This document shows, in pieces, positions 25,321-47,764 of a stretch of DNA of 64,000 nucleotides; the first letter of the stretch is position 1; every line of letters begins with the position of its first letter. The stretch is taken from positions 20,157 to 84,156 of the forward strand of contig JAHILE010000040.1 of assembly GCA_018897155.1 (NCBI GenBank), given 5' to 3'. Below the pieces are notes generated by a model. It was not told where the DNA came from, made no database searches, and saw only the letters and a list, made by a program, of their open reading frames with translations. The position numbers and the translations under genes were made by a program. This DNA comes from Nanobdellota archaeon (GTDB taxonomy: Archaea; EX4484-52; LFW-46).

Positions 25321-25986
25321 TTGAAGGGTAAAATAATCTGTGAATTGATGATACCTGAAGAATCCAAAAATCTGGTTCTTGACGAAAGCGCAAAAACAGT
25401 AAAAATCACGCTGAATCCGCGGCTTTATCCGCAGACTGTTGTGATGCGCGCAGCCTACCGTTTCACCGATGATTTCGACGTTATTGTTGACGGAGATCCT
25501 CTGTCAAGCATATTCGTAACGCTAAAGGTCAAGGCAGAAGATGTGGAAAGCACAACGCGTAAAGATTTGGAACAGCTTGAAAATGCTTTTTTCTCCGAGC
25601 TCATCCATGCAAATGTCGAAGAGACTCAGTCGCGCAGGTATGCTGATACAAGAAACGCGCTGATAGGGGCTGCGCTGAGGAACTTAATGGTCCAGGCAAC
25701 ACCGGAAAAGATTGAGAATATCGGAAAAAAACAAAAAACAACTGACGAAGAAAGTGCTTTTGATAAAATTTACAAATACATGCCAAAACAGAATTGTGGA
25801 AAATGCGGCGCAGATTGTGAAAAAACCGCAAAAAAAATACTTACAGGTGCTGCGAATCCAAATACATGTTTTCATCTGAAAAGGGCAGAATTTTCTGTGG
25901 TGCGAGAAGGGCTTGAAAATGCGCTTATTGCGCTAAAAAACAATAATGATTGCTATGAGCTTAATAAGAAAGACGAAAAATGCTGA
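25321..25986 (+). CDS. hypothetical protein with C-terminal CGxCGx3C...C Fe-S-like cysteine cluster; first gene of rSAM cluster
   Basis: The C-terminal 'NCGKCGADCEKT...NTCFH' cysteine cluster. Its 3' end overlaps the first rSAM gene by ~40 nt. Confidence 0.4.
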   Translation: MKGKIICELMIPEESKNLVLDESAKTVKITLNPRLYPQTVVMRAAYRFTDDFDVIVDGDPLSSIFVTLKVKAEDVESTTRKDLEQLENAFFSELIHANVEETQSRRYADTRNALIGAALRNLMVQATPEKIENIGKKQKTTDEESAFDKIYKYMPKQNCGKCGADCEKTAKKILTGAANPNTCFHLKRAEFSVVREGLENALIALKNNNDCYELNKKDEKC

Positions 25987-26911
25987 TTCCATTCTGGCAA
26001 ATGGTGCCTGTCAAACCGCAGAGCATGGCAAAACAGATTATATTCTTATAGGCATCAACAGAATTTGCGATAATGACTGCCTATTCTGCACAGATAACGA
26101 AAGCCATCCGGAATTAAACACAGATGCTAATGGCGTTATCAAAAGAATCGATTCACTAAATATTAAAAAATACCGCACAATAATACTCTCTGGCGGAGAG
26201 CCTGCAGAACAAGAAGGAATATCGGGAATAATATCACACTTAACTAGAGAGGGTCATACGGTTCAGATAATCACAAACGCAAGAAAATTTTCAGATAATA
26301 TATTTTCAAAAAATGTTGCGGATTCTGGCCTGAAAACCGCAATTACTGAAATACATTCTTCGATTCCCGAGGTACATGACTACATCACGCAAAGGCCCGG
26401 AAGCTTCAACGAAACCGTACTCGGAATAAGAAATCTAATTAATCTGAATGTAAACGTGCAAATAAAAATCATACTGAACCGCATAAATTACAAGACTTTG
26501 CCGCAGATTATAAAATATATTTGCAGGACATTCCCGGAATCAAAAATCAATATCACAACAACAAACATTAGTGGAAACGCACTAAAAAATAAGGAATTAC
26601 TCGCGGTCCGATTCTCTGAGGCTGCTGAGTACATAGAAAAAGGAATAAATGTTGCAAACCGATTTAATGCGCGAGTTTCTATCTCATGTTTGCCGCTTTG
26701 CGTGCTTCGTCCGCAGTATCGCACGTACATATTATCGAATGTACAATACCAGTATCTTGATGTTGGAAGCGATAAGATGCACACGCCAAAAAGGCACTTT
26801 GCACCATCATGCGAACGCTGTATTGATTCATGCAGATGCATGGGATTTTGGCGCAGCTACCTGGACTTATTCGGAGAAAGCGAAATACCCCCCATATTTG
26901 CGAAAGATTAG
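25946..26911 (+). CDS. radical SAM enzyme (paired paralog A)
   Basis: 'CDNDCLFC' is a CxxxCxxC motif. It also carries 'LSGGEP' and 'GNALKNKELLAVRFSE', plus a C-terminal 'SCERCIDSCRC' auxiliary Cys cluster. Confidence 0.7.
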   Translation: MIAMSLIRKTKNADSILANGACQTAEHGKTDYILIGINRICDNDCLFCTDNESHPELNTDANGVIKRIDSLNIKKYRTIILSGGEPAEQEGISGIISHLTREGHTVQIITNARKFSDNIFSKNVADSGLKTAITEIHSSIPEVHDYITQRPGSFNETVLGIRNLINLNVNVQIKIILNRINYKTLPQIIKYICRTFPESKINITTTNISGNALKNKELLAVRFSEAAEYIEKGINVANRFNARVSISCLPLCVLRPQYRTYILSNVQYQYLDVGSDKMHTPKRHFAPSCERCIDSCRCMGFWRSYLDLFGESEIPPIFAKD

Positions 26912-26989: not shown

Positions 26990-27340
26990 ATGAGTTTAAA
27001 GGAAAAACTGGAAAGAATAAAAAACCAGAACATAAAAAAAGCGTTTGAACTCCCGGAAAATGAAAAAACCGGAGTTGTAAACGGGCTCCTGATTCTTGGC
27101 GCGGCCATCGGAGCGCTAATAAGCCAGCAGCAAACCGCACATAGCACTCCGACGCCGACAAGCTGCGCAGATACATTAAACGACAAAGTAACGGAAACAG
27201 AAATACCTGCAAATAATCTGGATTTGGGTTTTGTTGAAAACTCCTGGCAGGACCACTGTTGGTGGGATCATTGCTGGTGGGATCATTGGGACCATTGGGA
27301 TCATTGGGATTTTACATTGTTTGCAAATGGTGGTAATTAG
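26990..27340 (+). CDS. repeat-containing small protein: hydrophobic N-region plus C-terminal WQ(DHCWW)2(DHW)3DF tract; candidate rSAM substrate peptide
   Basis: The C-terminus reads 'SWQDHCWWDHCWWDHWDHWDHWDFTLFANGGN'. It is encoded by 15-bp and 9-bp DNA tandem repeats and lies between the two paralogous rSAM genes. Confidence 0.5.
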   Translation: MSLKEKLERIKNQNIKKAFELPENEKTGVVNGLLILGAAIGALISQQQTAHSTPTPTSCADTLNDKVTETEIPANNLDLGFVENSWQDHCWWDHCWWDHWDHWDHWDFTLFANGGN

Positions 27341-27351
27341 GTGACGCACGT

Positions 27352-28248
27352 ATGACGAATAGATTATACTGTGCATTTAGCTACGAGTGCAACAACAATT
27401 GCCTGCATTGCGCAGCTGATTCGGAAAAACAAAGAAATCTTTCACTGTCTATTGAAGATATTGAACGGCTGCTTAAAAAAATAGACGAAATGAAAGACGT
27501 TGAAGTGGAACTTTCCGGAGGCGAGCCGACGCTAAAGCCAGAATTATATTATTTCCTTGCGCGCCTGACTGAAAGCCATCCGGAAATAAAGCACGTACTG
27601 CTTACAAACGGGCGCACATTTTCAAATCCCAACAACGCCGCAAAACTGAGTGAATATAATCCATACAGCATTTTTGTGCCGCTTCATGCTGACACGCGAG
27701 AACTTCACGACAAAATTTCCGGCGCAAAAAACAGTTTTGATGAAACAATGCTCGGCTTAAAAAATATGTATGAGTATCGCCTTCCGGTAAATATAAAAAC
27801 AGTTGTCAATAAGCTGAATTATCAGCGCATGCCGAATCTCGTTGAAATGGTTGCGCAGACACTTCCAGAATGCAAATGGATTACGCTGAATGGCCTAGAA
27901 CTTTCCGGAAGGGCGCTAAAAAACAAAGATATGCTTGGAATAAGAATAAGCGACACCAAAACACATATAGAGAAAGCCATAGACATGGCAAATAAATACG
28001 GACTTAGAATCGCCACTTACTCCATCCCGCCTTGCATCTTAAGCAAAGATTATTGGAAATATGTCGGAAGAAAGCGGCGCAACGTCATAATTACAAAAAC
28101 GCCGACAACAGACATGAAACGCGTTGAATTAACGTACGGAACCGTGCCTGAGTGCAAAGAATGCCGCTTTTTTAACGGCTGTACGGGTGCGTGGTATAGT
28201 TACTTTGAGGTTTATGGAAAAGACGAACTGAAACCGGTGATAAAATGA
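27352..28248 (+). CDS. radical SAM enzyme (paired paralog B)
   Basis: 'CNNNCLHC' is a CxxxCxxC motif. 'LSGGEP' and 'GRALKNKDMLGIRISD' match ORF 25946, and there is a C-terminal 'ECKECRFFNGC' cluster. Confidence 0.7.
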   Translation: MTNRLYCAFSYECNNNCLHCAADSEKQRNLSLSIEDIERLLKKIDEMKDVEVELSGGEPTLKPELYYFLARLTESHPEIKHVLLTNGRTFSNPNNAAKLSEYNPYSIFVPLHADTRELHDKISGAKNSFDETMLGLKNMYEYRLPVNIKTVVNKLNYQRMPNLVEMVAQTLPECKWITLNGLELSGRALKNKDMLGIRISDTKTHIEKAIDMANKYGLRIATYSIPPCILSKDYWKYVGRKRRNVIITKTPTTDMKRVELTYGTVPECKECRFFNGCTGAWYSYFEVYGKDELKPVIK

Positions 28249-29645
28249 CTGAAAATAAATCCGATGCTATGTGCAGCACGGTTTGTGCGCCAAACGAATA
28301 TTTTACAAAAAAACTATCAACTGGAAAGTATCTTGTGACTACGCGGCACAGACAGTATGCATTTCTTGACGCCAAGGAATATGACTTGCTTTATAGAGAA
28401 CAATTTCAAGAAAATAAAGAGCTTTTTGAAAAACTGGAAAAAACAGGCATCATATTCACTGAAAAAAACATTAAAAAAATAGTGGGCTCGTTTGAGAAAC
28501 AATACATATTTCTTTTCTTTCCAAAATCGTTCCGAATTAATTTGTCAAATGAGTGCAATCTCATGTGCAGTTACTGCCTGTCAAATGCGACCCCCACCCA
28601 GCACGAAACAATGTCAGACGAATTAGTGGATGCAACAATCAAATTCATGCTTTCTGCGCCCGGAAAAAAGTTTTATATGGAATTTCAGGGAGGCGAACCG
28701 CTTGTAAAATTCAATGAAATAAAAAAATTCGTAGCGAAAATAAAACTTGCTGCTGAGGTGGGAAAAAAAGAAATAGAAAAAATAGTTATTGTAACAAATA
28801 TGACTCTCATGACTGAAGAAATAGCAGAATATCTGCTCGAAAACAACATAGGGTTATGCTCTTCCCTTGATGGGCCTGAAGAGCTTCACGATATCCATCG
28901 CAAGTTTGGCGGCGGCGGCGGAACTTACAAAACAGTTACAAAATGGCTTTCGTACTTTCGGGAGCGAGGTAAGACAATAAATACGCTGCCCACAATAACT
29001 GCACACAGCATAAAATTTGGCGCGCGAAAAATAATTGACGAATATCTCAAACAGGGATGCATTCGAATCCCCATTAGGGCAGTAATTCCGGTTGGGCGGG
29101 CAAAACAAAATGACAACCACACATATTCTGCAGAAGAGTTCATTGCGTTTTGGAAAGATGCTGTCGAATACCTGGTGGAAATAACGCTGAATGGCAACCC
29201 CGTATTTGACCCTAACACGCAAGCAATGCTAAGAAACATAATGGATGGCCCGGTATCCTATATGTGCATGCGAAAACCATGCGGAGGTGCAATATCGCAC
29301 ATGTCGATATCCTGTGACGGAACAATCATGCCTTGCGACCTTTCAAAAACACTGCCTGAAATGGCTATCGGAAACGTGCGCGAAAGCCATATTGATGTTG
29401 CTCTAAGGACAATTAACATGAATGCGCGAACTTCTGATTTCCAACCGCTCTGCAACACCTGCGCGTTCGGGCCGTACTGCGGAAACTGCTACACCAGAAC
29501 GCGTGCCGTTTTTTCCGATGAAACCCCGAGAACTCCGCGCGACTTTGAATGTAAAGTAAACAAGGCAATGTTTACATATCTTTTTGAAAAAATGCAGGAC
29601 GCAAAATACGTAAAAGTTTTCCGCATTTGGATAAATGGCAGGTGA
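28245..29645 (+). CDS. radical SAM enzyme with C-terminal SPASM/twitch-like Cys-rich domain (peptide-modifying type)
   Basis: 'CNLMCSYC' and 'FQGGEP' motifs. The C-terminal tract 'CMRKPCGGAIS...CDGTIMPC...CNTCAFGPYCGNC' is SPASM-like. Confidence 0.75.
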   Translation: MTENKSDAMCSTVCAPNEYFTKKLSTGKYLVTTRHRQYAFLDAKEYDLLYREQFQENKELFEKLEKTGIIFTEKNIKKIVGSFEKQYIFLFFPKSFRINLSNECNLMCSYCLSNATPTQHETMSDELVDATIKFMLSAPGKKFYMEFQGGEPLVKFNEIKKFVAKIKLAAEVGKKEIEKIVIVTNMTLMTEEIAEYLLENNIGLCSSLDGPEELHDIHRKFGGGGGTYKTVTKWLSYFRERGKTINTLPTITAHSIKFGARKIIDEYLKQGCIRIPIRAVIPVGRAKQNDNHTYSAEEFIAFWKDAVEYLVEITLNGNPVFDPNTQAMLRNIMDGPVSYMCMRKPCGGAISHMSISCDGTIMPCDLSKTLPEMAIGNVRESHIDVALRTINMNARTSDFQPLCNTCAFGPYCGNCYTRTRAVFSDETPRTPRDFECKVNKAMFTYLFEKMQDAKYVKVFRIWINGR

Positions 29646-29649
29646 TTAA

Positions 29650-30498
29650 TTGTATTCGCTCATATTAAAGGCAGCAATAGTTGCAGCAATCTTGAAAGCG
29701 ACAAACGCGTTTAAATGGCGCGCAGTTATTGTATATTTCTTGCTGTCAGTTTTTATGATATACTTCTCCGGCGCACAATATGCTCCGGAAAGAATCCTAG
29801 TATACACATTTGAATTTTTTGCAGCATATGTCGCAATCGGCATCATTAAGTACCGCATAAATCGCGCAAAAACAAAAACCCCCGTATACGGAGGAGTTAC
29901 TCTTTCGCTGAATTCGCTTCTGTTAATGTTTTCAATGGGCTACATGTTTGCGCTTAGTGAAATAAATAAATATGCTTCGTTTTTTGTTACAATGCTTCTT
30001 TTTTTTATTCTCAATAAAAACGCTTACCGAAAAAAAATGATTTTGTTTTGGAAGGCCGTATTTATGTTGTCAATAATTCATTCGCTAATAATTTCCGGCG
30101 GCAGAACGCTAATAACCCCGACGTATTTTGTTGCGACATACGCGGTAATAACACATCTTTTTTTCGCTGCAAAAGATGCGTTCAGTTATGCACATTCGCC
30201 TGAAGAATTAACCGAGGGTATGATGCCGGCAGAAAGTATTGTTCAAGACAATAAAAAATATATTTTCGGAAGCACGCTGTTCCCGAGTGCGTTTGGGCTT
30301 ATTAGATATGTCGCAGGCGACATTCTGCTGAAAAGACGTGTTGTGGCTTCATTTTTTGTTCCGCTAACAAAGAAAAACATTCTTGAGATAAGAAAAATCG
30401 CAAAGGAACATAAACGTCCTTTTTTTCTTGTGCAAAAAGAAATAGACTTTTTGCCATTCATTGTTTTGGGCGCAATTGTTGCACTTTTAACAATGTAG
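29650..30498 (+). CDS. polytopic membrane protein (unknown; candidate exporter/processing component of the rSAM cluster)
   Basis: Six to eight hydrophobic segments. It lies immediately downstream of the rSAM/SPASM gene on the same strand. Confidence 0.4.
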   Translation: MYSLILKAAIVAAILKATNAFKWRAVIVYFLLSVFMIYFSGAQYAPERILVYTFEFFAAYVAIGIIKYRINRAKTKTPVYGGVTLSLNSLLLMFSMGYMFALSEINKYASFFVTMLLFFILNKNAYRKKMILFWKAVFMLSIIHSLIISGGRTLITPTYFVATYAVITHLFFAAKDAFSYAHSPEELTEGMMPAESIVQDNKKYIFGSTLFPSAFGLIRYVAGDILLKRRVVASFFVPLTKKNILEIRKIAKEHKRPFFLVQKEIDFLPFIVLGAIVALLTM

Positions 30499-30526: not shown

Positions 30527-32620
30527 CTATGCAGCAATACAACACACCTTACTTAAAAGAGGCATATCAACACAGCCATCACTACATGCCTCCATACCCG
30601 GTGGACAGCCGCCCATAAACTCAAATACAAGGTCACATGTTGGTGGTGGTGGCAATCCTACTTTGCAGCAGATTTTAGTTATTTCCTGGCAATCTGAAAT
30701 AGTTATTTTAGGAACTTCATTTTCTCCTTCCAGACACGCACCCAAAAAATAGCACGTTCCGCCGTTATCGGCGCACGTTAATCCAGCTGGTGCGTCTTTG
30801 CAGCAAAGTTCACCTGCATCACAAGTTCCTGAAGCGACGATCTTGCCAACAGGACATCCCGCTCCTGCTTCACATGTCTGGCCTGCTGTATTTTCACATG
30901 TGTATAATAGCGGCGAGGGCACTTCAATTGGAGGTACTGTTTGAGGCCCAAAAGCACCGCCGCTTTGCGTAGAACAAACATGGCCGAAATCATCGCATGC
31001 ATTGTCATCCACTATATCTATTTCGACAAAAAAGGTAAACTGGTACGGCACCCATTTCTTTTCAACGCTGTCAAAAACATTATATTTTTCATCGATAATC
31101 GTCACATTTATTGGAACGTTTTTTAAAACATATCTACTGTCATAATGCATGTAACAAGTATTTGAAGTATCACAACCGCCAGTACAACCAGATGTTGATG
31201 AGCATTTGCCCGTATTCACAGCCAATCCGCTTTTGTATCTATAATATTCCAAATTTTGGCCGCTGCACCATTCGTTTTCATCGGCGGATGGTTGAGAATT
31301 TATGGGGCATATTTGAAAATCTGGTGCAATGCTAAGTTTCAATTTTATATCCGCCCCCACATTATCAAACTGATTTGATATATCACCGGCGATAATATCC
31401 AAGCCGCTGTTAAGGACAATCCGAAAATCAACTGCAGTATATTGTGGCGTAGGGTCTGAAGGGCATCCGTTCGCATAACTCAATCTTCCAGAATTGCATC
31501 CAAGTGTGTTTGATGGTATTTGATGATCTACCAACGTATTAAGTTGATTATACCATCTCGGCTTCACCCACGCCTCATAATTATCAACAAAAAACTTCGC
31601 GACCCCGTACATTCTCCAGTACCTGATTTGAGCGTCTTCTTCTACAAGGTTCCAGTTTTTCAGATTGGCGTCTGCGCTCAAGGAGCTTATTTTGTCGGGC
31701 CCATAAGCACTTCCTCTCAAAAAGCCTTCGCCGTTATTGAGCGTCTCGTAAACGCCTTTCCCTGCCGGCACAAAAAAAGCATTTAACGGTTCTATCTCAA
31801 AGCGTTGTAATTTGAGTTTTTGTCGGTAGCTTTCTATACTTGCGTTAAGTGCTGCATTAAGATTATTCACAACATCTTTGTCATATATTGAAACCGCCAT
31901 AACACGAATATGCGCAACATCAACGGCAGAGCCAGTAAATATGAGTGTAATATCCTCAACAGAATTTTGCACAATGCTGTTTCCAATTGGAAGGATTGTC
32001 GTGCCTGAGGTTGTGATTGTTGTAACACCATTACAATTTGCATTCTGGCAAATCTGGACATCAACAGATTCTTCTTTCAGCATAATCACATTAAACATTA
32101 TGTTCAGCTGATAGTCTCCTCGCACAACATCCTTCATAGTCTCGACATACTCCGCGGCGGAAACTACTGTGTATGTCTTGGCATCTGTTCCAAGCTTAAA
32201 ATTGGCATCAATATAAGACAAATACGGCATTCGTTTTCGTATTGTGCTCTCGGAAGTTCCAACTGTCTTGCATCGGGAAACCGCAAAATTCAGAACGCCG
32301 TCGGTAATGTCCATTTTCGGCACAGGATCATTTCCAGGATCTCCATCAGTAGCTGCAGTAATTACTGCCGCGCTTACTCCGCCATGCACTCCAAGCTCCT
32401 TTGCAGTATTCATGAGCCCAAAAAAAAGCGCGGTTTTTTCAAACGACTGCTTTATTCCGTGAAGCGCAAGATTAGCATCAGATATTGCGTCAGCACTTCT
32501 TGAAGATGTGCCCTGCGCAGCAGAAAATCTAAAAAGATCATATAATAAGGCACTGCCCAAAGCAATAACTAAAAAGAAGACCCCGAACAAAACAAAATGC
32601 CTTGACAATGCTTTTTTCAT
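30527..32620 (-). CDS. large secreted/anchored protein with Cys-rich C-terminal repeats
   Basis: An N-terminal signal anchor is followed by a C-terminal ~200 aa with more than 30 Cys in repeated '...C....CC...' units. Confidence 0.5.
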   Translation of the reverse strand: MKKALSRHFVLFGVFFLVIALGSALLYDLFRFSAAQGTSSRSADAISDANLALHGIKQSFEKTALFFGLMNTAKELGVHGGVSAAVITAATDGDPGNDPVPKMDITDGVLNFAVSRCKTVGTSESTIRKRMPYLSYIDANFKLGTDAKTYTVVSAAEYVETMKDVVRGDYQLNIMFNVIMLKEESVDVQICQNANCNGVTTITTSGTTILPIGNSIVQNSVEDITLIFTGSAVDVAHIRVMAVSIYDKDVVNNLNAALNASIESYRQKLKLQRFEIEPLNAFFVPAGKGVYETLNNGEGFLRGSAYGPDKISSLSADANLKNWNLVEEDAQIRYWRMYGVAKFFVDNYEAWVKPRWYNQLNTLVDHQIPSNTLGCNSGRLSYANGCPSDPTPQYTAVDFRIVLNSGLDIIAGDISNQFDNVGADIKLKLSIAPDFQICPINSQPSADENEWCSGQNLEYYRYKSGLAVNTGKCSSTSGCTGGCDTSNTCYMHYDSRYVLKNVPINVTIIDEKYNVFDSVEKKWVPYQFTFFVEIDIVDDNACDDFGHVCSTQSGGAFGPQTVPPIEVPSPLLYTCENTAGQTCEAGAGCPVGKIVASGTCDAGELCCKDAPAGLTCADNGGTCYFLGACLEGENEVPKITISDCQEITKICCKVGLPPPPTCDLVFEFMGGCPPGMEACSDGCVDMPLLSKVCCIAA

Positions 32621-32624
32621 AAAA

Positions 32625-33143
32625 TCATCCCCTTGTTTTCAATACCACTTTGGCAACGTCGCCGTTTGGAAGAGCGATGTACTCAAAGGACAAAACATTG
32701 AAACCGGTAGGGCCCATACTGGGCATTCCATAACATCCCGAAACCCCGAGAAGTGGTGGGCAGAGTACGGAATGTTCTACATAAAAATCATATGTTGTAA
32801 TAGATAGTTCCATTAACCACCCAAAACAATCCACAGGTTTCACAGAGTCTGTTTTCCCTCCGTACTCTATTTGAACCACGTCGCCTAAAAAGCTGTTTGT
32901 TTTCCCTTCGCCAATACCTATTGCTAACACATCCCTTAAAGGCAGTTTTGTATTCGGTGCGCAATCCGTGCTTTCAAGTATGCTGTGAAGCGCATATTGT
33001 GTAGTTTTGCTCTTATCATCATATAATAGTGACGTTACTTTCAGATAAGCCACAATTGCTATTATCACTATGAATATCAGCATTATAACCAAAAGCCATG
33101 GCGCAAGAGGCTCAGTCTGTCCGCACCTTTTTTTGTTATTCAT
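32625..33143 (-). CDS. membrane-anchored extracellular protein (class III-like N-terminus)
   Basis: The likely start is 'MNNKKRCGQTEPLAPWLLVIMLIFIVIIAIV'. The ORF-track N-extension overlaps the upstream gene. Confidence 0.35.
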   Translation of the reverse strand: MNNKKRCGQTEPLAPWLLVIMLIFIVIIAIVAYLKVTSLLYDDKSKTTQYALHSILESTDCAPNTKLPLRDVLAIGIGEGKTNSFLGDVVQIEYGGKTDSVKPVDCFGWLMELSITTYDFYVEHSVLCPPLLGVSGCYGMPSMGPTGFNVLSFEYIALPNGDVAKVVLKTRG

Positions 33144-33156
33144 ATAATCATCTAAC

Positions 33157-33864
33157 TTAGCTACAGGCATCATCAAACCCCACTGTTTGAAGCGATTTAT
33201 CACATATTTTTGAACAAAAACATTTTGTATAAGGGCATTGAATGTCGCAAAGGCATAGCGGATATCCATCTGCGTAAAAATCAGTTCCTGAATCCGCGTC
33301 CAATATTACTTTTATTGATGCAAGAGCCATTTTATCATCGCTATTTACGACGCCGGAAAATCTTAAAAAATTTCCATCACTGCCGTAATTATAAGGGGAT
33401 GGCATAAGCGTTTCGAACCCGAGCGGCCCTCCAACAGTCGAATATAAAAAAAAACCGCGATCCGAAATGCAACGTTTAGTTATTCCGCGAGCATGCGTAT
33501 TATATGCATAATCAATATTGTTGTTGTTCTGAAAATACCACGTATCGGTCCCGCTTTTGACTTCAATATAATACAGAGAGCCGGGCAGGTCCAGCGGTTC
33601 CGATGTTCCGGCGCAAACAATGCTATTGTTGTACTTGTCGAGAGCAGTCTTGTTAAATACAAATTTTTCTGTTGATCCTTTTACGTCATTCAAATTTATG
33701 CACGGAGCTGACAAAAGCTTTTCTGAAAGCGCTATTGAAGATCCGCGAGTTTCTATATCTCCTATAACCGTCTTTGCCCATACAAATATTACAATAAGCG
33801 CAACTGCGCAAGCAGTGCCTATGATGACGTAAATTGCAGACATTAAATTATCAACAAATTCCAT
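33157..33864 (-). CDS. membrane-anchored extracellular protein
   Basis: It has an N-terminal TM 'AIYVIIGTACAVALIVIFVWA' and a Cys-containing C-terminus. Confidence 0.4.
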   Translation of the reverse strand: MEFVDNLMSAIYVIIGTACAVALIVIFVWAKTVIGDIETRGSSIALSEKLLSAPCINLNDVKGSTEKFVFNKTALDKYNNSIVCAGTSEPLDLPGSLYYIEVKSGTDTWYFQNNNNIDYAYNTHARGITKRCISDRGFFLYSTVGGPLGFETLMPSPYNYGSDGNFLRFSGVVNSDDKMALASIKVILDADSGTDFYADGYPLCLCDIQCPYTKCFCSKICDKSLQTVGFDDACS

Positions 33865-33873
33865 TATATCCCT

Positions 33874-34341
33874 CTAGCAAAAAGATTCTTGAAATACTGC
33901 ATTGCAGCAGGCAGTACCTTGGACACAAACTTCGACAAACGGCCGGCATGAATCAGCCGGATCTTTTTTCTTAATAACGCAAAATGCACGGGCTTCAATT
34001 GGCGTAATTATCTGCTTTAGCTCCGCTGTGTAGTGGCTCATTTTAAGCTTCGGCGTTAATGCTTCAATAGTGATGGCATCGCCGGAGTACTGAACTTGTA
34101 TTGAATCTTCATCAATTTCCACAGTATAATTTTCATCATTCGGCAGTTTATATATCGCAATGCCGTTTTCAGCCACAGATATTTGGACGATGGTGTTTCT
34201 TAGCCCCATTATGGCAAGCTCTGTTTCGCCCCGCTTGTCTGCAAAAACATTGGCTGTTGTGGAAAGGGCAAATACCAATATGACAACCACTATAAGAAGC
34301 GCTCCGATACCGTTTATAACATTTCCAACAATGCCTTTCAA
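33874..34341 (-). CDS. type IV pilin-like protein (class III signal peptide)
   Basis: N-terminus 'MKG|IVGNVINGIGALLIVVVILVFAL'; C-terminus 'CVQGTACCNAVFQESFC'. Confidence 0.45.
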   Translation of the reverse strand: MKGIVGNVINGIGALLIVVVILVFALSTTANVFADKRGETELAIMGLRNTIVQISVAENGIAIYKLPNDENYTVEIDEDSIQVQYSGDAITIEALTPKLKMSHYTAELKQIITPIEARAFCVIKKKDPADSCRPFVEVCVQGTACCNAVFQESFC

Positions 34342-34345
34342 AAAA

Positions 34346-34555
34346 TCACCAAAAGCTCAAAAGACCGGCGCATGCAGACCAGTCCCATCTCAGGCAATCC
34401 AAAATTTTTGCCGTTCTTTCAGCAACAGGAATTGCCGGACCCATTGCTGCGCTGATAAAGTAAAAAACAATCACTAAAAGTATTATAAATATAAGCAGCT
34501 GCCGGATACCGTCTATAGAAAATACAAACGCGCCCTTCCGCCTTGAAAAAATCAT
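34346..34555 (-). CDS. small pilin-like protein
   Basis: 'RRKG|AFVFSIDGIRQLLIFIILLVIVF', with a Cys/Trp-containing tail. Confidence 0.4.
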   Translation of the reverse strand: MIFSRRKGAFVFSIDGIRQLLIFIILLVIVFYFISAAMGPAIPVAERTAKILDCLRWDWSACAGLLSFW

Positions 34556-34593
34556 ACTATTATATTATATCAAAGGCTATTAATATAAGTTCT

Positions 34594-34815
34594 CTATAGC
34601 AGCCAGCAGAGCGGCAGGCACTTGACAAGGCCATTCTCAGGAATACATTTGCCGCAGTCTGAAAGAGACTTGAACATGCCTGTTGATTTTGTCAAAAAGC
34701 CGGAATTCGTATTTACAAAAAACAAAATTACTAAAACCGCCATAATCAGGCCCAGAATTATGATTATGGTTGTTGAATTCACCTCTACCTGGCCTTTAGG
34801 TGATTTTGAGTTCAT
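34594..34815 (-). CDS. small pilin-like protein
   Basis: 'SPKG|QVEVNSTTIIIILGLIMAVLVILFF'; tail 'CGKCIPENGLVKCLPLC'. Confidence 0.45.
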   Translation of the reverse strand: MNSKSPKGQVEVNSTTIIIILGLIMAVLVILFFVNTNSGFLTKSTGMFKSLSDCGKCIPENGLVKCLPLCWLL

Positions 34816-34833
34816 AGAAGTCCTCGATTGCGT

Positions 34834-36795
34834 TCAGGCTTTTGGCTGACATACCGCTAAGACATTATTCCAGATACATGCAGAACATTTCGGGCAATTT
34901 GTCTTGGTATTGTATGTCGGAGTTCCGCACAGATCGCCGCATTTGCTTACACAGGTTTCTAAAACCCATTTACATAGGCTTGAACAAACATCACAATATG
35001 TCTGGCTAGTGCCCGCATATTCCGCACAATTATATCCGCAGGAAAAGAACGCCACGCTCTTTGACCATGTAACCGGAGTTGCCAAATTATCTGCGCTTGC
35101 AGATGTTGCTAATGTGGCGCTGACCGATGTTTCAAGCAGAGGCACTGTCGGCGAATCCTCTTTAAGGAGAACAAATGAGTAATTCCTTGACGCACTTACC
35201 GGAATATTTATATTATCGCCGCCCAAAAGAGCCAAATCCTTTGCCCCTAACTTTGCGCTAATATGATCGCTAACTTTTATCGCTGCCATGGTACCCGTAT
35301 TTTTTACAGTGACGTTAACAATGCGATCACTGACGAGGTCTTCATAAATTCTTGAAACACCGATTTTTTTGTCTTGAATATATACATTCGTTATCTCAAG
35401 CTTTGGCGCTTTGCAGCTTCCATCTGCGCATCCTGTTAAGCAGGAATCATCTGCCTTAGTAGTATATTTACAGCCCGTCACAGTATCAGAATATCCAGAA
35501 TCGCTCGGGCCTGAAAGGACATAATCACCGTCACATCCACCAGTTTGCGATGAACACGACCAGGTAAAATCTTTTTCAATATAATTTATTATGTATGGCT
35601 TCGTATCAAATGTTTTTATGCAAAGAACGTTTTTGCCATCCCCTTGGCGCTCAACACGCAGCGTATTTTTTCCATCATTAAAGCCGCCAACTCCGACCTT
35701 AGGCAGATCAAACAGAATTTCTTTAGGATTTGCGGGATTAATTTTCTTCCCTGCAATAACTTCCACAGTATTCAGCTTAACCACAACATGCGCGGGATTC
35801 CAAATATCGCTTTCAAATATCGCGCCCATTTGCTTTCCAGGCCCAAACGGCAGATCTGCGTCAAAAGTGACTGCCGGGCAAGTCCATGAAAAACTAACAT
35901 CACGATCTGCTGTTTCAATTCCGCGTTTTACGTGAATTTTCAAAGTATACCCGCCATTATACAAAGCTGCCACAGGCACTCTAAAACTATAAGACGCCAT
36001 ATTTTCGATGCAAGCAACAAGAGGACCTAGATTGCATTTTTGTTCAACCCCTCCTTTCCGTAATATAACTGTTAGACCGTCCACGGGGTTTTCAAGTGGT
36101 CCCATACCCACTTTAATTTTAACATATACTTGTTCTCCTGCTTTTACTGAAGATATTTTAATGTCACAATTCACATCTGAACAAAGAATAACGCGATTTA
36201 CGCCCGTTTCTTCTTCCGCTTCTTCTTCATCTTCCTGAATTGGTTTCGCGCCTTTGTCAACCAACATCGTAATCGGCTTTGACGGGTAATTATCTGCGCT
36301 GACAGTTAGCGTCACATACCCCTGCTGAATGTTTGTGGTGCTTATTGTACCTTGATAAACTCCAGGAGTTGTGGTTTCATCGAACGCGTCCGTTATGTAT
36401 GGCCCTGTTATTGTTCCGCCGGTAATCGGAGCGCCATTATATGTCAGTGCGATGTTTATTATATTCTCCCCCTCGCCTAGTTTCTCCGGATAAGTTGCTT
36501 CAATTGTCTTTGCCAGATGATCTAAAAATTCCCTGCAGGTCTGATCATTCATCTGCGGGTCTTTTACCGTCAAACATGCGGCGCCTGTCGGATTATCATT
36601 GCACACTTTTGTGCAATAATCTATTTTTGAAGAATTGCTTCCAAGTGAGGGATCTGTGCCTTTTATTATTTCTTCCGTTCCTGTTGCTCGCCCGTTTAGG
36701 ATAATATAAATAATTGCAGAAATTGCCAAGAGCACGATTATGTAAATCACCATATTCATTGAAACTTCAAACGTGCCTTTGCGTTTCATAAACAC
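34834..36795 (-). CDS. large pilin-like/adhesin-like protein (class III signal peptide, Cys-rich C-terminus)
   Basis: 'KRKG|TFEVSMNMVIYIIVLLAISAII' followed by a 600-aa extracellular region. The last 70 aa carry ~14 Cys. Confidence 0.5.
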   Translation of the reverse strand: MFMKRKGTFEVSMNMVIYIIVLLAISAIIYIILNGRATGTEEIIKGTDPSLGSNSSKIDYCTKVCNDNPTGAACLTVKDPQMNDQTCREFLDHLAKTIEATYPEKLGEGENIINIALTYNGAPITGGTITGPYITDAFDETTTPGVYQGTISTTNIQQGYVTLTVSADNYPSKPITMLVDKGAKPIQEDEEEAEEETGVNRVILCSDVNCDIKISSVKAGEQVYVKIKVGMGPLENPVDGLTVILRKGGVEQKCNLGPLVACIENMASYSFRVPVAALYNGGYTLKIHVKRGIETADRDVSFSWTCPAVTFDADLPFGPGKQMGAIFESDIWNPAHVVVKLNTVEVIAGKKINPANPKEILFDLPKVGVGGFNDGKNTLRVERQGDGKNVLCIKTFDTKPYIINYIEKDFTWSCSSQTGGCDGDYVLSGPSDSGYSDTVTGCKYTTKADDSCLTGCADGSCKAPKLEITNVYIQDKKIGVSRIYEDLVSDRIVNVTVKNTGTMAAIKVSDHISAKLGAKDLALLGGDNINIPVSASRNYSFVLLKEDSPTVPLLETSVSATLATSASADNLATPVTWSKSVAFFSCGYNCAEYAGTSQTYCDVCSSLCKWVLETCVSKCGDLCGTPTYNTKTNCPKCSACIWNNVLAVCQPKA

Positions 36796-36799
36796 ACCA

Positions 36800-37072
36800 T
36801 CAACATACCGTCATAATCCCTTTAGTTACGCAGTCGCCTCCAAAATCGTCCCAAACACAGCCGTCTCCATAAATCTGCTTGCAAGTGTTGCATCTTTCCT
36901 GGCATATCTGGGCTTGAATCACATTGTTCGCATTATCTGAAGTGGCTTGATTTCTTTCATCTGCCTTATTTGTAGAACTGCTGAAAACCAGAAGGATTAC
37001 CACGGCAACTGCCAGCGCAATCACTATTGCAATAATAATCCACATAGCCTGGCTTGTTCCTTTTTTAAACAT
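36800..37072 (-). CDS. small pilin-like Cys-rich protein
   Basis: 'KKG|TSQAMWIIIAIVIALAVAVVIL'; tail 'CQERCNTCKQIYGDGCVWDDFGGDCVTKGIMTVC'. Confidence 0.45.
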   Translation of the reverse strand: MFKKGTSQAMWIIIAIVIALAVAVVILLVFSSSTNKADERNQATSDNANNVIQAQICQERCNTCKQIYGDGCVWDDFGGDCVTKGIMTVC

Positions 37073-37073
37073 G

Positions 37074-37262
37074 TCATACCCCCGGAATATGGATGGTTTT
37101 CAAAACCATTATAATTGACCTGTCGCGCATAAAAAATAACATATACACCAACACAAGAAGCACAATCAAAGCAAGAACCCATTTTATAATGGTTTCTATA
37201 GGCATGCTGAAACCCTTTTTCATAATTAATTTATGTGCGAGCTTATTTAAATAAGCATTCAC
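37074..37262 (-). CDS. small pilin-like protein
   Basis: 'KKG|FSMPIETIIKWVLALIVLLVLVYML'. Confidence 0.4.
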   Translation of the reverse strand: MNAYLNKLAHKLIMKKGFSMPIETIIKWVLALIVLLVLVYMLFFMRDRSIIMVLKTIHIPGV

Positions 37263-37272
37263 AATAATTTAT

Positions 37273-37383
37273 ATGCGAAAGGGAATTGAGACCGAACGGC
37301 TCACAAATGTTGGAATTGCCATTGCATTGGTTTCGCTGGTACTTATTTTTGCATACACTTTGATGAAAAAACATCTTGGGTGA
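37273..37383 (+). CDS. mini pilin-like ORF (36 aa, below ORF-track cutoff)
   Basis: 'MRKG|IETERLTNVGIAIALVSLVLIFAYTLMKKHLG*'. It follows the cluster-wide KG-plus-hydrophobic-helix pattern. Confidence 0.25.
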   Translation: MRKGIETERLTNVGIAIALVSLVLIFAYTLMKKHLG

Positions 37384-37536
37384 TTGAATTCGAAGTAAAG
37401 GGCTTTCAGATATTTTCAAGACGCTAGTATTCGTAATACTTGCACTGATAGTCTTTGTTATTGTTTTATATCTGAGCGGAAATCTTGGAAATATGATGAG
37501 TGATGGATCAAAAAGTTTAATAGAGGGGCTGCCCGG

Positions 37537-37743
37537 ATGAAAAAGCATTTAATAAAAGGAAGTATTGATTGGGGAATGATTATAAAAATAATACTTGCAT
37601 TGATTGTATTCGTGGTTTTTTTCACAATCATGACACAAACCCAAACAGGATCCAAGGATAGCGCGTGTGGTGGTTTGCTGGAATCCTTTAAAGCATACGT
37701 TTATGAGCCGCTGGGAATACCTCCCCCGACAAAATTGTGTTAA
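37537..37743 (+). CDS. small pilin-like Cys-containing protein
   Basis: 'MKKHLIKG|SIDWGMIIKIILALIVFVVFF'; tail 'CGGLLESF...PPPTKLC'. Confidence 0.45.
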   Translation: MKKHLIKGSIDWGMIIKIILALIVFVVFFTIMTQTQTGSKDSACGGLLESFKAYVYEPLGIPPPTKLC

Positions 37744-41412: not shown

Positions 41413-43593
41413 TTATAGTTTTAAGAATTTCCAGTCCGATAAGTTATTCTCATCATAATTGTATCTTTCATTATCGTTATATCTACAACTCTCATCTTTA
41501 AAGATAATAATCCCGCCAAATAGCTTTTTATTATGCTTTTGATTTTGTGTTTTAATGTATTTGCTTAGTGCTTCTGCTTTTTCTTTAGCGACTTTTGCGG
41601 TTATTCCACTTTTAGTATCAAAAATACCTATTCTTCCATCATCAAGCATAATTACAAAATCAACATAAAATCCTCTTTCCACACCTGCATCGTCTTTATA
41701 TTTTACTGCAAGGTATTTTTTATCTGATTCTCCGTTTTTGAACCACCATTTAACAGAATTTTTTGGATTTTCAAGTAGTTTTATGAAATCTTTTTCTGGC
41801 ACACTTTCGGCAGAAATAAAATAAGGTTTCATAATTGCTTTTTTATGTGGCAATTCTTTGTATTTGCTGTTATAAGTTATTAGTTTGGGAACATTCCAGA
41901 CAAGATGCTCTGTTTCTCTTTGTTCTGGCAATCCTCCAACAATCTTGAGTTTGTATTCCTCTTTTGCTTCATTAATGCAATCAGTAAATAACTGATTATT
42001 TTCTTCTCCTAAAATTATCTTTTGAGCAAAAGTTTCATCTTCGATTTTTATTACTTTTTCAAAAAACTTATAGAGTGCTGTTCTTATTCTTCCTTGTGAA
42101 TCAGCAGGAGCAAAAGGAGTACAGCTTCCTCTTACAAATAAGTCAAATCTATGTTGTAATTCAACAGCACTTAACTTAAATTGCATTTCTCCTTTATGTT
42201 CTACTGTTTGAACTTTATCTAAAACCAATATTTTTCCATCAACCATTATTTTAGTTACGAGAGATTTTGGCTTTAGATTTATTTTCTTTGCAAGTTCGCT
42301 TTTTTGTGCAATTTCTAAGAATAATTTTGTAAATTCTCCAGAAAGTCTTGTCTTTTCTCTTTGTCTTATGAGATAGATTGAATTAAGATCAATATTGCTA
42401 TATAATTCTTCTCTTCTTTTTGCTTCGTAAATTGTGATATAATCTTTAGCGACTTCTTCAGTTATGTTAATGTCAGCAAGATTTGTGAATACATAACCTT
42501 TATTCAATTCTTCAGTTTCATAATGCTTAAACTCTGGCATTCTCATTATTCTGCCTACTGTCTGAATGGTAAAGTCCATACTTTGCATATCTCTGAACAT
42601 TACCAGAATGTATGCTCTTGGACAATCCCAACCTAATGCTATAGCTTGTTTGAAAATAAGAACTTGAACATCGTTATCAGGCATTTCAATATTCTCAAGG
42701 TTGGTTTTTTCTTCTGATAAATAAATCCCTAATTTTCCGTTTTCTGTTGTTATTTTGAATTTATCTCTTAAAATTCCCGTAATCTGTTCTTGCCTGTCAA
42801 TAACTCCTGTCTTTTTATCAGGAAGCTGAATTAAAATTAATGGATTGATATCGGATTTTTCTTTTTCTAATAGTTTAAGCATTTCCTGTCTTTTCTTTAA
42901 AGCACATTCAATAACTAATTCATCAGGAGATTTGTCAGAAACTTTTCCTTTGTCTAATTCTGGATTTATGGCAATTTCTTTCTTTATCATTCCCTCTTTT
43001 CTTACATCTTCAAATTCTACAAGAACATTATAAAAAGAATGAATGTGCGGAGTAGCTGAAACTTCCAAAATTACATCGGGATCAATATCATTTATTAAAT
43101 TTCTTGAAGTTTCTGTTTTAGCAGTAAAGTGACTTTCGTCTATAATTAAAACTATTTTTGTGCCGTCTTCTTTCGTGTTTTCAATAATTTTAGATAAATT
43201 TCTTTCCTGTTCATTTTCTCTAATATAAACATTATCTGTTTTGTTTATGCTTTCCCAATTCAAGAACAAAATTTCATCTGGCTCAATTTTATTACCTACT
43301 AAATCTTCAAAAAATTTACACTCTATCGCTCTTGTCGTAGAATAATATTTATCTAATTTTTCTTTACTTTGTGTATGTAATTGTCTTGGAGCTGTCCAAA
43401 TAAAAGCGATTTGCTTTCCATCGTCTCTTCTATCAACAAGTCTTTTAATAAATTCGGCCACCATTAAAGTTTTACCAGAGCCTGTCGGAGATTTAAAAAC
43501 TAAAGTTTCTCTTGAATCTCGATTTAGTAATTCGTTAATCTGTTCTTTTAGTTTTAAAATTGCTTTCTCTTGATAATCTTTAATTTCAATCAT
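41413..43593 (-). CDS. Type III restriction enzyme Res subunit (SF2 helicase + PD-(D/E)xK nuclease)
   Basis: Walker A 'SPTGSGKT', DEAH-like 'LIIDESH' and a C-terminal 'VDFVIMLDDGRIGIFDTK' nuclease motif. Confidence 0.75.
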   Translation of the reverse strand: MIEIKDYQEKAILKLKEQINELLNRDSRETLVFKSPTGSGKTLMVAEFIKRLVDRRDDGKQIAFIWTAPRQLHTQSKEKLDKYYSTTRAIECKFFEDLVGNKIEPDEILFLNWESINKTDNVYIRENEQERNLSKIIENTKEDGTKIVLIIDESHFTAKTETSRNLINDIDPDVILEVSATPHIHSFYNVLVEFEDVRKEGMIKKEIAINPELDKGKVSDKSPDELVIECALKKRQEMLKLLEKEKSDINPLILIQLPDKKTGVIDRQEQITGILRDKFKITTENGKLGIYLSEEKTNLENIEMPDNDVQVLIFKQAIALGWDCPRAYILVMFRDMQSMDFTIQTVGRIMRMPEFKHYETEELNKGYVFTNLADINITEEVAKDYITIYEAKRREELYSNIDLNSIYLIRQREKTRLSGEFTKLFLEIAQKSELAKKINLKPKSLVTKIMVDGKILVLDKVQTVEHKGEMQFKLSAVELQHRFDLFVRGSCTPFAPADSQGRIRTALYKFFEKVIKIEDETFAQKIILGEENNQLFTDCINEAKEEYKLKIVGGLPEQRETEHLVWNVPKLITYNSKYKELPHKKAIMKPYFISAESVPEKDFIKLLENPKNSVKWWFKNGESDKKYLAVKYKDDAGVERGFYVDFVIMLDDGRIGIFDTKSGITAKVAKEKAEALSKYIKTQNQKHNKKLFGGIIIFKDESCRYNDNERYNYDENNLSDWKFLKL

Positions 43594-45337: not shown

Positions 45338-45391
45338 TTATTTGTTCCCCTTTATTCTCAATATAACCTATGATGTTTATTAATGTTTTTC

Positions 45392-46030
45392 TTATTTAAC
45401 CATTGTGTTGCATTCTTCTAATCTTTCACAAAGCAAACTGGCAAAACTCAGATATTTTAATGCCCTGTTTTTATCTTTTTGGATAATATTCTCATGTCCC
45501 TTTGGGTTTCTTATACCCATTATTGCACCTGCATAAAGATGCATAAATCCTTCTTGTTCATCTTTATCTGATTGGGATACAAGTCCATTCATTTTTAGTA
45601 GAGGGCTATTTACACTAAAAGCAGTTAGCATAAGACTTTTACCATCCAAGTCTTTGCGACAAGATTTCTCTTTAACAAGATTATTTATTTTCTTAAAAGC
45701 CTCAAAAATTGCTTGAGCATAATGTTTATCATAAAATAATTTTTTACTGACGGATTCTATTTCAGGATGGATATTTAATAATCTAAAATATTCCACTTCT
45801 GTTTTTTTCCCTTCATAGAAATCCGCATTATTTTTTTGAATCCAACCTTTATCCTCTAAACGTAAGAATTTTTTACAGGATTTAAGTTGCATTAAAATAT
45901 TTGAGCAGGTTATTTGATATTCGTCAAAAAGTTTGTTTTTTACGTCGCTTGGCCTTCTATGTTCTAGAAAGTATCCATTTTTCCATAATTCGCTTATTGC
46001 AGTATTTATTTTCATGTTAATCAGATACAT
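45392..46030 (-). CDS. hypothetical protein in RM island
   Basis: A 212-aa ORF with no catalytic motif recognised. It lies on the same strand immediately upstream of mod. Confidence 0.35.
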   Translation of the reverse strand: MYLINMKINTAISELWKNGYFLEHRRPSDVKNKLFDEYQITCSNILMQLKSCKKFLRLEDKGWIQKNNADFYEGKKTEVEYFRLLNIHPEIESVSKKLFYDKHYAQAIFEAFKKINNLVKEKSCRKDLDGKSLMLTAFSVNSPLLKMNGLVSQSDKDEQEGFMHLYAGAIMGIRNPKGHENIIQKDKNRALKYLSFASLLCERLEECNTMVK

Positions 46031-46741: not shown

Positions 46742-46799
46742 TTTTAATCGCCCTTAATAACATAATAGTGTAATAATGCAATAGTATTTAAATCTTTCG

Positions 46800-47600: not shown

Positions 47601-47632
47601 AGTATGTTATTTCTAAAAATAAATATTATTTA

Positions 47633-47764
47633 TCTCCCACCCCATCATTTCCCTTAGAGATGTTTTTTGATTTTTCAATATGTTGCTATTGTTATAACAA
47701 TGTTATATTCGGTTCTATATAGGTATAGTATATAGTTCCATACGAAATGATGGGGTGGGGGTGT
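47633..47764. promoter_or_regulatory. predicted replication origin core: 16-bp perfect inverted ORB-like repeats flanking ~90-bp AT-rich DUE, upstream of orc1/cdc6
   Basis: 'GGGAAATGATGGGGTGGG' (antisense at 47633-47653) and 'GAAATGATGGGGTGGGGGTG' (47745-47764) face each other across AT-rich DNA. The GGAAATGA...GGGGT core resembles archaeal ORB elements. Confidence 0.5.

Follow-up and report, generated by a model that had tools for sequence, protein, structure and literature searches.

Archaea of the DPANN group live attached to host cells, which they recognize and hold. Here we consider a compact operon in a 64,000-nucleotide stretch of the genome of a Nanobdellota archaeon (GenBank assembly GCA_018897155.1, contig JAHILE010000040.1, positions 20,157 to 84,156 of the forward strand; hereafter, the window, with positions counted from its first nucleotide). 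The operon occupies positions 30527-37743 and encodes Cys-rich membrane proteins, which, as argued below, are candidates for the subunits of a type IV pilin-like surface appendage.

The described systems that come closest in working principle are the pilin set of Methanococcus Epd (system 1) and the Cys-rich minor-pilin/adhesin loci of the Thermoproteales. The experimentally defined processing sites of the Epd pilins of Methanococcus maripaludis read RAQI, KGQV, KGQV, KGQL and KGQI; these sites are processed by the peptidase EppA and require Gln at position +1 (PMC4371748). The charge at position -2 is a critical determinant of archaeal prepilins, whose leader is short and charged, K/R occupying position -2 and G/A position -1, with the site located ahead of the hydrophobic domain (PMC4371748). 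Archaeal pilin genes are commonly found apart from the genes for the assembly machinery (PMC4371748; Makarova, Koonin & Albers 2016). Genomes of DPANN archaea carry type IV filament (TFF) systems (Makarova, Koonin & Albers 2016); in nanoarchaea, an earlier census detected the ATPase but not the pilins that would go with it, and recognized no A24 peptidase in two genomes (Makarova et al. 2016).

Candidate pilin subunits encoded by a conserved operon

With moderate confidence, we conclude that the operon encodes type IV pilin-like subunits and that the locus as a whole is a probable archaeal pilin/adhesin cluster, the processing of the proteins and the formation of filaments being features that we infer. 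The claim is that these proteins work like pilins and not that they are members of a pilin family, because membership in the curated families was tested and no significant match to a curated pilin, archaellin or class III family was found. The class III pilin reading given in a preliminary description of this DNA that relied on the sequence alone is borne out in part: it is favored by a non-random, conserved N-terminal motif, by Epd-like sites, by a long helix followed by beta domains, and by adhesin-type modules on the largest protein, H, and its homologs, and it is weakened by the missing family match and by the lack of machinery genes nearby.

The eleven canonical open reading frames (ORFs) previously delineated in this region were found at the same coordinates. 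Nine genes (s49 and A to H) are tightly packed on the minus strand, running from 37262 to 30527; s36 and s68 are located on the plus strand, divergent from the nine-gene arm (37273-37743), with a twelfth candidate ORF, which has no standard start codon, between them. A single hydrophobic segment, located at the N-terminus, is present in all eleven canonical ORFs. The genes are as follows (lengths in amino acids, aa; the arrow marks the putative cleavage point):

37273..37383, plus strand: s36, 36 aa, MRKG↓IETERLTNVGIAIALVSLVLIFAYTLMKKHLG; first gene of the divergent small-gene arm
37388..37540, plus strand: putative 50-aa member, IRSKG↓LSDIFKTLVFVILALIVFVIVLYL; same leader/helix design
37537..37743, plus strand: s68, 68 aa, ..HLIKG↓SIDWGMIIKIILALIV..; 2 conserved Cys in the tail
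37074..37223, minus strand: s49, 49 aa, MKKG↓FSMPIETIIKWVLALIV; the mechanical ORF reaches 37262
36800..37072, minus strand: A, 90 aa, MFKKG↓TSQAMWIII..; 6 conserved Cys in the tail (CQERCNTCKQIYGDGCVWDDFGGDC)
34834..36795, minus strand: B, 653 aa, ..KRKG↓TFEVSMNMVIYII..; 28 Cys
34594..34815, minus strand: C, 73 aa, ..SPKG↓QVEVNSTTIIII..; 4 Cys in the tail
34346..34555, minus strand: D, 69 aa, ..RRKG↓AFVFSIDGIRQLLIFII..; 2 Cys in the tail
33874..34341, minus strand: E, 155 aa, MKG↓IVGNVINGIGALLIVVVI..; 6 invariant C-terminal Cys
33157..33864, minus strand: F, 235 aa, N-terminal hydrophobic helix; conserved Cys-rich tail CxCDxxCPxxxCxC
32625..33143, minus strand: G, 172 aa, MNNKKRCG↓QTEPLAPWLLVIML..; the mechanical ORF reaches 33269
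30527..32620, minus strand: H, 697 aa, MKKA↓LSRHFVLFGVFFLV; signature gene of the locus

The window was compared with seven related contigs, denoted L001, L002, L003, L005, L009, L011 and L012 (W, where needed, denotes the window itself). The small divergent genes come first in the conserved gene order and are followed by s49, A, B, C and/or D, E, F, G and H; L001, L002, L005 and L009 share this order, and L003 and L012 share part of it, with 25-50% identity between the proteins. Synteny of the operon thus extends to at least five further DPANN contigs. Among the small genes, s36, which encodes little beyond a helix with its single transmembrane (TM) segment, has orthologs in L001 (MKKG↓IEYE), L005 (MRKG↓LEKE) and L009 (MQRCG↓EVD); s68 has orthologs of 67, 68 and 82 aa in L001, L005 and L009, respectively; and s49 has counterparts in L005 (MKKG↓DIAIN), L009 (..KLKA↓SIAIN) and L001, where the gene had not been called. 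The orthologs of B span 581-662 aa (L001, L002, L005, L009), those of G begin with KG↓Q (L001), KG↓G (L003), KKA↓M (L005) and RHG↓L (L009), and nine homologs of E were found. The mechanical ORFs of s49 and G are probably too long, judging by the orthologs, which put the starts at 37223 (MKKG) and 33143 (MNNKKRCGQ). The ORF at 37388-37540 has no ATG, GTG or TTG start, ATT being the first codon past the upstream stop, and its own stop codon overlaps the ATG of s68; its reading as a leader and helix (IRSKG↓LSDIFKTLVFV..., that is, IRSKG↓LSDIFKTLVFVILALIV) is matched by an orthologous 54-aa gene of L001 (MSASAGRKG↓ASEVIKV...). If expressed, this ORF may have a non-canonical start; alternatively, it may reflect decay or an assembly error.

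Some of the related loci carry additional genes. In L002 (402-1000 and 7633-11023), gene A is duplicated in tandem, and genes for secreted or membrane proteins of 163 and 965 aa follow H; the divergent arm of L009 (639-4662) additionally encodes a protein of 1091 aa and a further protein that has a KG leader and a weak match to the PLAT domain.

Searches with the full-length operon proteins against Pfam and NCBIfam gave zero matches at E<=1, and searches of PDB sequences with profiles of E and H found nothing. A profile of the H core, run with HMMER over 1.84 billion cluster representatives, exhaustively retrieved no more than 40 proteins, of which 31 had E<=1e-10 and most were aligned over the full length; the H family is, therefore, real but rare. 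A counterpart of H with 100% identity is encoded in a metagenome-assembled genome (MAG) labeled 'Nanoarchaeota archaeon' (contig JBDRJO010000035.1), and the other named carriers are Aenigmarchaeota, a 'Nanohaloarchaeota' MAG and an uncultured archaeon, all named members of the family being DPANN. A scan of GTDB genomes yielded only one locus, in LFW-46, and two scans of JGI metagenomes yielded nothing, as did searches for the exact products of H and of the window's first gene. Judging from these comparisons, the operon is a conserved syntenic DPANN unit of about twelve genes that lies outside all the family databases searched.

The N-terminal motif

The hydrophobic core is preceded by [KR]G in eight of the eleven window proteins and by [KR][GA] in nine, compared to means of 2.4 and 3.0, respectively, in shuffles of the same residues (P about 5e-5). 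The earlier statement that nearly every ORF starts with a basic segment ending in K/R-G is, then, correct as regards the non-random occurrence of [KR][GA] in 9/11 proteins, but F has no such motif, and G and H have CG and KKA, respectively. Across seven loci, [KR][GA] is found 0-10 residues ahead of the hydrophobic segment in 46 of the 63 operon proteins, the reversed dipeptide in 10, and the proteins outside the 46 mostly possess near variants, namely, CG, HG, KS, VG, TG or EA. Orthologs that are 30-50% identical preserve the motif, and it is retained in 20 homologs of H down to about 20% identity (e.g., MKKKG↓QIEILIIVF, KRRSG↓QWMATG, MAKRRIG↓QGPLVV, MRRKA↓VAEDMV). The preliminary description had named a lack of site conservation in homologs as grounds for giving up the pilin reading; since the site is conserved both in the orthologs and in the H homologs, no such refutation ensues.

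The leader typical of archaeal prepilins (K/R at -2, G/A at -1) is, accordingly, present in the operon proteins, with the exception of F, which has none, and of the near variants. A hydrophobic domain of ~20 residues follows, the hydrophobic window opening 0-7 residues past the G/A in most proteins. The KGQV site of C is identical to the processing site of M. maripaludis EpdB and EpdC. The form of the motif differs between genomes, KG prevailing in the window and RKA↓Q or REA↓Q being found in five L012 paralogs. Such genome-wise co-variation is as expected if one shared enzyme per organism reads the site. Paralogy among the operon families is confined to the N-terminal 35-50 residues, and the N-terminal region of s68 was linked to family A with 92% probability (hhalign). 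In pilin sets, paralogy is typically confined to the N-terminus.

A trivial origin of the motif, namely, the sequence AAA-AAA-GGx serving as the Shine-Dalgarno (ribosome-binding) site of a downstream start, was also considered. This artefact is rejected because the peptide that follows the motif is conserved as protein (TSQAMW, TSQTIW, MSQTMW; five loci) and a start codon further downstream is lacking in several orthologs. The conservation of this peptide, TSQ(A/T)(M/I)W, in five loci also indicates that the N-terminal region of A is translated.

These N-termini could also belong to ordinary, uncleaved bitopic type II (N-in/C-out signal-anchor) proteins that make up a membrane-anchored, Cys-stabilized surface complex or coat but no filament, with [KR][GA] serving topology, helix capping or docking of a partner instead. 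We deem this alternative, the main rival of the pilin-like reading, less likely. A single N-terminal TM segment following positive charges fits the positive-inside rule, as would be expected of signal anchors. However, signal anchors are not known to require that the last basic residue be followed by a small one, whereas the dipeptide is strongly over-represented in this very order, is conserved to about 20% identity, and, in L012, switches from G to A, with Gln at +1, across the paralogs of a single genome. Furthermore, the sites coincide with proven sites of EppA and PibD, and members of 32-50 aa, if uncleaved anchors, would consist almost entirely of the helix, like the Epd/Flp-type pilins that have no globular domain.

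Cysteines, predicted structures and variable modules

In addition to the motif, the operon proteins share an unusual richness in cysteine, which had been observed previously and is confirmed by the counts: Cys makes up 4.14% of their residues compared to 1.11% in 32 other genes of the window, a 3.7-fold enrichment, and occupies invariant positions. The two largest proteins have the Cys-rich ends ascribed to them, with 28 Cys in B (12 in the last quarter) and 31 in H (20 in the last quarter); the C-terminus of B consists of two C-x2-C-x2-C-x-W-x6-7-C units. The tail CCNAVFQESFC, which had been attributed to one of the tiny proteins, does exist but belongs to the 155-aa E. Each of A, B, C, D, E and s68 has an even number of Cys, and the same holds for F and G if the TM-helix Cys of F and the leader Cys of G are left out of the count.

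In the H protein, a conserved core that spans about 585 aa is followed by a Cys-rich module at the C-terminus, which is variable. In the AlphaFold2 (AF2) model of the core (pLDDT 85, pTM 0.82), a 73-residue helix (positions 6-78) is followed by beta domains, among them jelly rolls resembling carbohydrate-binding modules (CBM-like). The analogous model of E, built from nine sequences, consists of a helix (3-56) followed by 6-7 strands and is of low confidence (pLDDT 56). The architecture expected of a pilin, an extended N-terminal helix with a beta-rich globular domain, is thus seen in the H core, and the same topology is seen in E at pLDDT 56. The long helix of H could equally be that of a signal anchor, representing a TM segment with a stalk. 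Beyond the core, the C-terminal part of the H proteins is Cys-rich in W and in the homologs P0003, P0015 and P0040, is missing from P0002 and P0004, and is replaced by FN3, Big_7 or PKD repeats in P0019 and P0021-P0024. This variation of the tail matches what would be expected of a modular adhesin built on a conserved base.

The missing machinery and the case against filaments

Several observations weigh against the pilin-like reading. A comparison of 57 N-termini with curated models at E<=10 gave two weak matches to Arch_flagellin only, and no pilin model recurs. The spacer between the G/A and the hydrophobic core comprises 0-10 residues and often includes several charges, which is less clean than in textbook pilins; under a stricter definition of the core, it comprises 3-9 residues and is partly charged. 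F has no basic or [KR][GA] leader in any of the five orthologs. The fold search with the E model was uninformative, and no solved pilins were recovered among the fold neighbors of the H and E models. Finally, no TFF ATPase, platform protein or Peptidase_A24 was found in the 64-kb window (Pfam scans of all ORFs of >=110 aa, in agreement with the preliminary description, which had noted that an assembly ATPase and a platform gene are missing), and the same machinery was not found within +/-10 kb of the locus in L001, L002, L003, L005, L009 and L012. A search with the window's last gene gave no new context with TFF genes either. Most of these points, namely, the lack of pilin-family matches, the charged spacer residues, the leaderless F, and the absence of machinery near the operon in seven loci, are equally points in favor of signal anchors.

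A lone T2SSF (TadC/FlaJ-like) gene is present at 3805-4728 of L011, an Aenigmarchaeota contig, 5 kb from a solitary H gene, with housekeeping genes between the two and no adjacent ATPase gene.

Under the pilin-like reading, which we continue to favor, the operon could function as follows. The N-terminal hydrophobic helix, the single TM segment of each protein, would insert the protein in the membrane, and a prepilin-type peptidase would remove the short basic leader after [KR]-[G/A], as suggested by the motif. The N-terminal helices would then mediate assembly of the mature proteins into a pseudopilus or short fibre, driven by a type IV filament ATPase and platform whose genes presumably lie in other parts of the genome. 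The tiny proteins (32-90 aa) may be core or minor subunits, and B and H would display binding modules outward, namely, the CBM-like jelly roll seen in the H core and the lineage-variable FN3, PKD, Big or Cys-rich C-termini. The conserved, mostly even-numbered Cys could stabilize the exposed domains via disulfides or metal binding. The appendage would, perhaps, enable a small episymbiotic cell to attach to its host cell or to surface glycans.

The gene set is unannotated, DPANN-restricted and unusually Cys-rich, and H has no fold-level relative among solved structures; the pilin-like N-termini of these membrane proteins suggest a new adhesive surface appendage. The operon offers a concrete candidate pilin subunit set for DPANN archaea, and the high-confidence model of H, its exchangeable adhesin modules and the conservation of the entire unit make these proteins testable targets.

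The convergent Hxs-like cassette

A plus-strand gene cluster that resembles the bacterial HXS system is convergent to H and is located 28 bp from its stop codon. The cluster includes radical S-adenosylmethionine (rSAM) enzymes and comprises the following genes:

25321-25986, plus strand: HxsD-like gene (NCBIfam/Pfam)
25946-26911, plus strand: HxsC-like rSAM enzyme (NCBIfam/Pfam)
26990-27340, plus strand: 116-aa precursor with Trp/His/Cys repeats (recognized through orthologs)
27352-28248, plus strand: second HxsC-like rSAM enzyme (NCBIfam/Pfam)
28245-29645, plus strand: HxsB-like rSAM/SPASM enzyme (NCBIfam/Pfam)
29650-30498, plus strand: 282-aa polytopic membrane protein with similarity to Arc_PepC, between the cassette and the operon

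Similar cassettes are located at 8880-11589 of L001, 13938-18396 of L009, 12937-16400 of L011 and 5771-8816 of L012. The NCBIfam matches in the window are to HxsB (E 4e-83, 280 bits, cut-off 370), HxsC (E 2e-51 and 6e-40, cut-off 268) and HxsD (E 6e-10, cut-off 50); all these scores are below the equivalog cut-offs, whereas the fused HxsC of L011 is above (304 bits). The 116-aa precursor and its orthologs (~100-116 aa) share a conserved N-terminal region, a hydrophobic segment after (E/D)K(T/S)G, and C-terminal Trp/His/Cys repeats, such as WQDHCWWDHCWWDHWDHWDHWD, WKNHCWNWSWCWCWGWGH, WDHCWWDHCWWDHWDHWD and WNWSWCWCWGW, with WDHCWW/WDHWD in the window and WxW/WC in the orthologs. The precursor has no match in NCBIfam and has neither the His-Xaa-Ser repeats nor the peptidoglycan-binding domain of bacterial HxsA. 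It is the likely substrate of the cassette enzymes, so that the cassette is self-contained; the cassette is probably a divergent archaeal relative of the bacterial HXS system. Given that a conserved precursor with Trp/His/Cys repeats is encoded in each cassette, a scheme in which the rSAM/SPASM enzymes cross-link the Cys-rich tails of the pilin-like proteins is less likely.

The cassette adjoins H in six of the seven loci for which downstream sequence is available (W, L001, L002, L009, L011 and L012) and is absent from L003; in the Aenigmarchaeota locus L011, H and the cassette are present and the other operon genes are missing. The recurrent pairing of H with the cassette across rearranged contexts suggests a functional link. 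The pairing of the operon with an archaeal Hxs-like cassette and an Arc_PepC membrane protein is previously undescribed, and we found no account of HXS in archaea. In bacteria, rSAM-matured HxsA was shown in 2026 to block the entry of phage DNA in the periplasm, and 99.7% of the reported HXS systems are from Pseudomonadota.

Considering this adjacency, the operon and the cassette might constitute a composite envelope module in which H, with or without other subunits, anchors, exports or presents the rSAM-matured Trp-rich peptide, either for antiviral defense of the envelope, as in bacterial HXS, or for interaction with the host. Such a module could coexist with pilin-like proteins as well as with signal anchors, and the precedent of an envelope-located, rSAM-matured effector that acts against phage DNA entry is in its favor, as are the convergence of H and the HxsB/HxsC genes in 6/7 loci, including the one that retains H alone, the presence in every cassette of a conserved precursor with a hydrophobic segment and repeats, and the location of the Arc_PepC-domain protein, usually between the two units. 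We, nevertheless, hold this arrangement to be doubtful. The operon and the cassette are convergent, which means that they are not transcribed together; in LFW-46, the operon is present but the cassette is not; the precursor belongs to the cassette itself and shows no homology to the operon proteins, so that these are not needed as substrates; PADLOC returned only generic viperin-like radical-SAM matches; and, because all loci come from related DPANN lineages, the adjacency may partly be inherited synteny.

The 282-aa membrane protein deserves separate attention. Arc_PepC (PF06819), the domain with which archaeal A24 prepilin peptidases end, is the top match in all five orthologs of the 282-aa protein and the only match in four (E 1.4e-5, 4.9e-4, 0.01, 0.017 and 0.024), with the gathering score of 23.4 passed only by the L009 copy (25.6 bits). 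No match to Peptidase_A24 (PF01478) was detected at E<=10, and a PDB search found no relative and did not recover FlaK. The five orthologs have no GxGD motif; the only invariant Asp is D266, and a second position is occupied by D/D/D/D/E. Identification of this protein as a canonical prepilin peptidase is, hence, unsupported, given that both the A24 catalytic domain and GxGD are missing. By similarity, it could possibly be a processing or export factor.

One can go further and envisage the operon, the Arc_PepC membrane protein and the Hxs-like cassette as a single DPANN-specific envelope machine, in which a non-canonical A24 relative devoid of GxGD would cut the pilin-like proteins at [KR][GA]↓ as well as the rSAM-crosslinked Trp-rich peptide at its conserved (E/D)K(T/S)G↓(V/A) site, with the peptide displayed on or beside an H-capped fibre for host recognition or virus exclusion. 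This scheme strikes us as improbable; if true, it would account for both the missing pilins and the missing prepilin peptidase of nanoarchaea (Makarova et al. 2016). The pairing of the operon with the cassette hints at a tie between surface appendages and a modified Trp-rich peptide.

Chromosomal setting

The window is archaeal, with genes for fibrillarin, Nop56/58, Orc1/Cdc6, CDC48, PolD with an intein, PolB, PcrB and SecDF. In principle, the many small, unannotated single-pass membrane proteins could be structural proteins left behind by an integrated virus or mobile element, all the more so as the jelly rolls of H, among many fold matches, also resemble viral capsid and tail-tip folds, and a low-GC island with defense and insertion-sequence (IS) genes lies 4 kb away. 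This origin is very improbable. The GC content of the operon (0.40-0.42) equals that of its flanks; in the window and in LFW-46, the operon resides in the same housekeeping setting (S17e, Nop56/58, fibrillarin, GARS, epimerase, PcrB, PolB), a synteny conserved between distant genomes; there are no relatives in IMG/VR, and the PHROG matches of the operon proteins do not rise above TM noise; and the unit has no integrase, capsid or replication gene. Given the flank-like GC content, the housekeeping synteny and the lack of IMG/VR and PHROG relatives, a viral or mobile origin is rejected, and the operon is best described as a stable chromosomal one.

The low-GC island (41413-47447; GC 0.30-0.35 compared to ~0.41) contains genes for a ResIII-type helicase/restriction subunit, an N6/N4 DNA methylase, Hypoth_Ymh, two small uncharacterized ORFs and a Y1 transposase of the IS200/IS605 type, and is probably a horizontally acquired restriction-modification/defense island. 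The cumulative GC skew has its minimum at ~46-48 kb (46000-49143), beside the Orc1/Cdc6 gene (47923-49143), which is consistent with a replication origin in this vicinity. Elsewhere in the window, the minus-strand gene at 1375-6249 encodes the large subunit of DNA polymerase II (DP2; 1624 aa), with an intein that contains a LAGLIDADG homing-endonuclease domain, and the plus-strand gene at 10239-11852 encodes a protein of 537 aa that begins with a lamin-tail domain (LTD) and is probably another surface protein of this archaeon, which has a small genome.

Comparison with known systems

The neighboring cassette resembles the bacterial HXS system (HxsABCD) in the combination of an HxsB-like rSAM/SPASM enzyme, an HxsC-like rSAM enzyme, an HxsD-like protein and a small exported repeat protein. 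Unlike bacterial HXS, it is archaeal, contains a duplicated HxsC and an extra Arc_PepC membrane protein, and scores below the family cut-offs; its precursor combines Trp/His/Cys repeats (WDHCWW...) with a hydrophobic segment, whereas HXS combines HxS repeats with a peptidoglycan-binding domain.

With the bacterial modular pilins and tip adhesins (PilB of S. sanguinis; PilY1/GspK-type proteins), the operon shares the concept of a pilin-type helix that carries a large module, the module of the H family being exchangeable between lineages (FN3, PKD, Big, Cys-rich tails or none). In contrast to these proteins, H shows no fold match to a solved pilin or adhesin but only a generic CBM-like jelly roll, its helix has 73 residues compared to the usual ~53, and its location at the tip is our inference.

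The resemblance to the type IV pili (T4P) loci 4D/4E of the Thermoproteales is closer: these loci, too, combine diverse small putative minor pilins with one or two large proteins, including a large adhesin-like protein with a signal peptide (Makarova, Koonin & Albers 2016), almost all components contain multiple conserved Cys, presumed to form disulfides, and, in some of the loci, the pilin genes are located apart from the machinery genes. The operon differs in that it belongs to a DPANN lineage, in which the GC content and the context suggest a mesophile, in that no homology was detected, and in that the Thermoproteales loci are defined around an ATPase/TadC pair that is missing here.

As regards the Epd system, there is no family match to Epd or class III models, Gln at +1 is not universal in the operon, the Epd cluster includes an ATPase gene, two platform genes and EppA, none of which is found near the operon, and neither the strong Cys enrichment nor an Hxs-like neighbor is a feature of Epd loci. 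Like EpdA-E, which are processed by EppA, the operon proteins include several small pilin-like members with short basic leaders that end in K/R-G/A, often with Gln at +1: the sites PKG↓QV, CG↓QT and RKG↓QL in the window and RKA↓Q and KKG↓QI in its relatives can be set beside KGQV, KGQI, KGQL and RAQI of Epd. Some Epd pilins have no globular domain, like the members of 32-50 aa described here; in both cases, minor pilins are accompanied by large adhesin-like subunits; and Epd system 1 has been reported in DPANN archaea.

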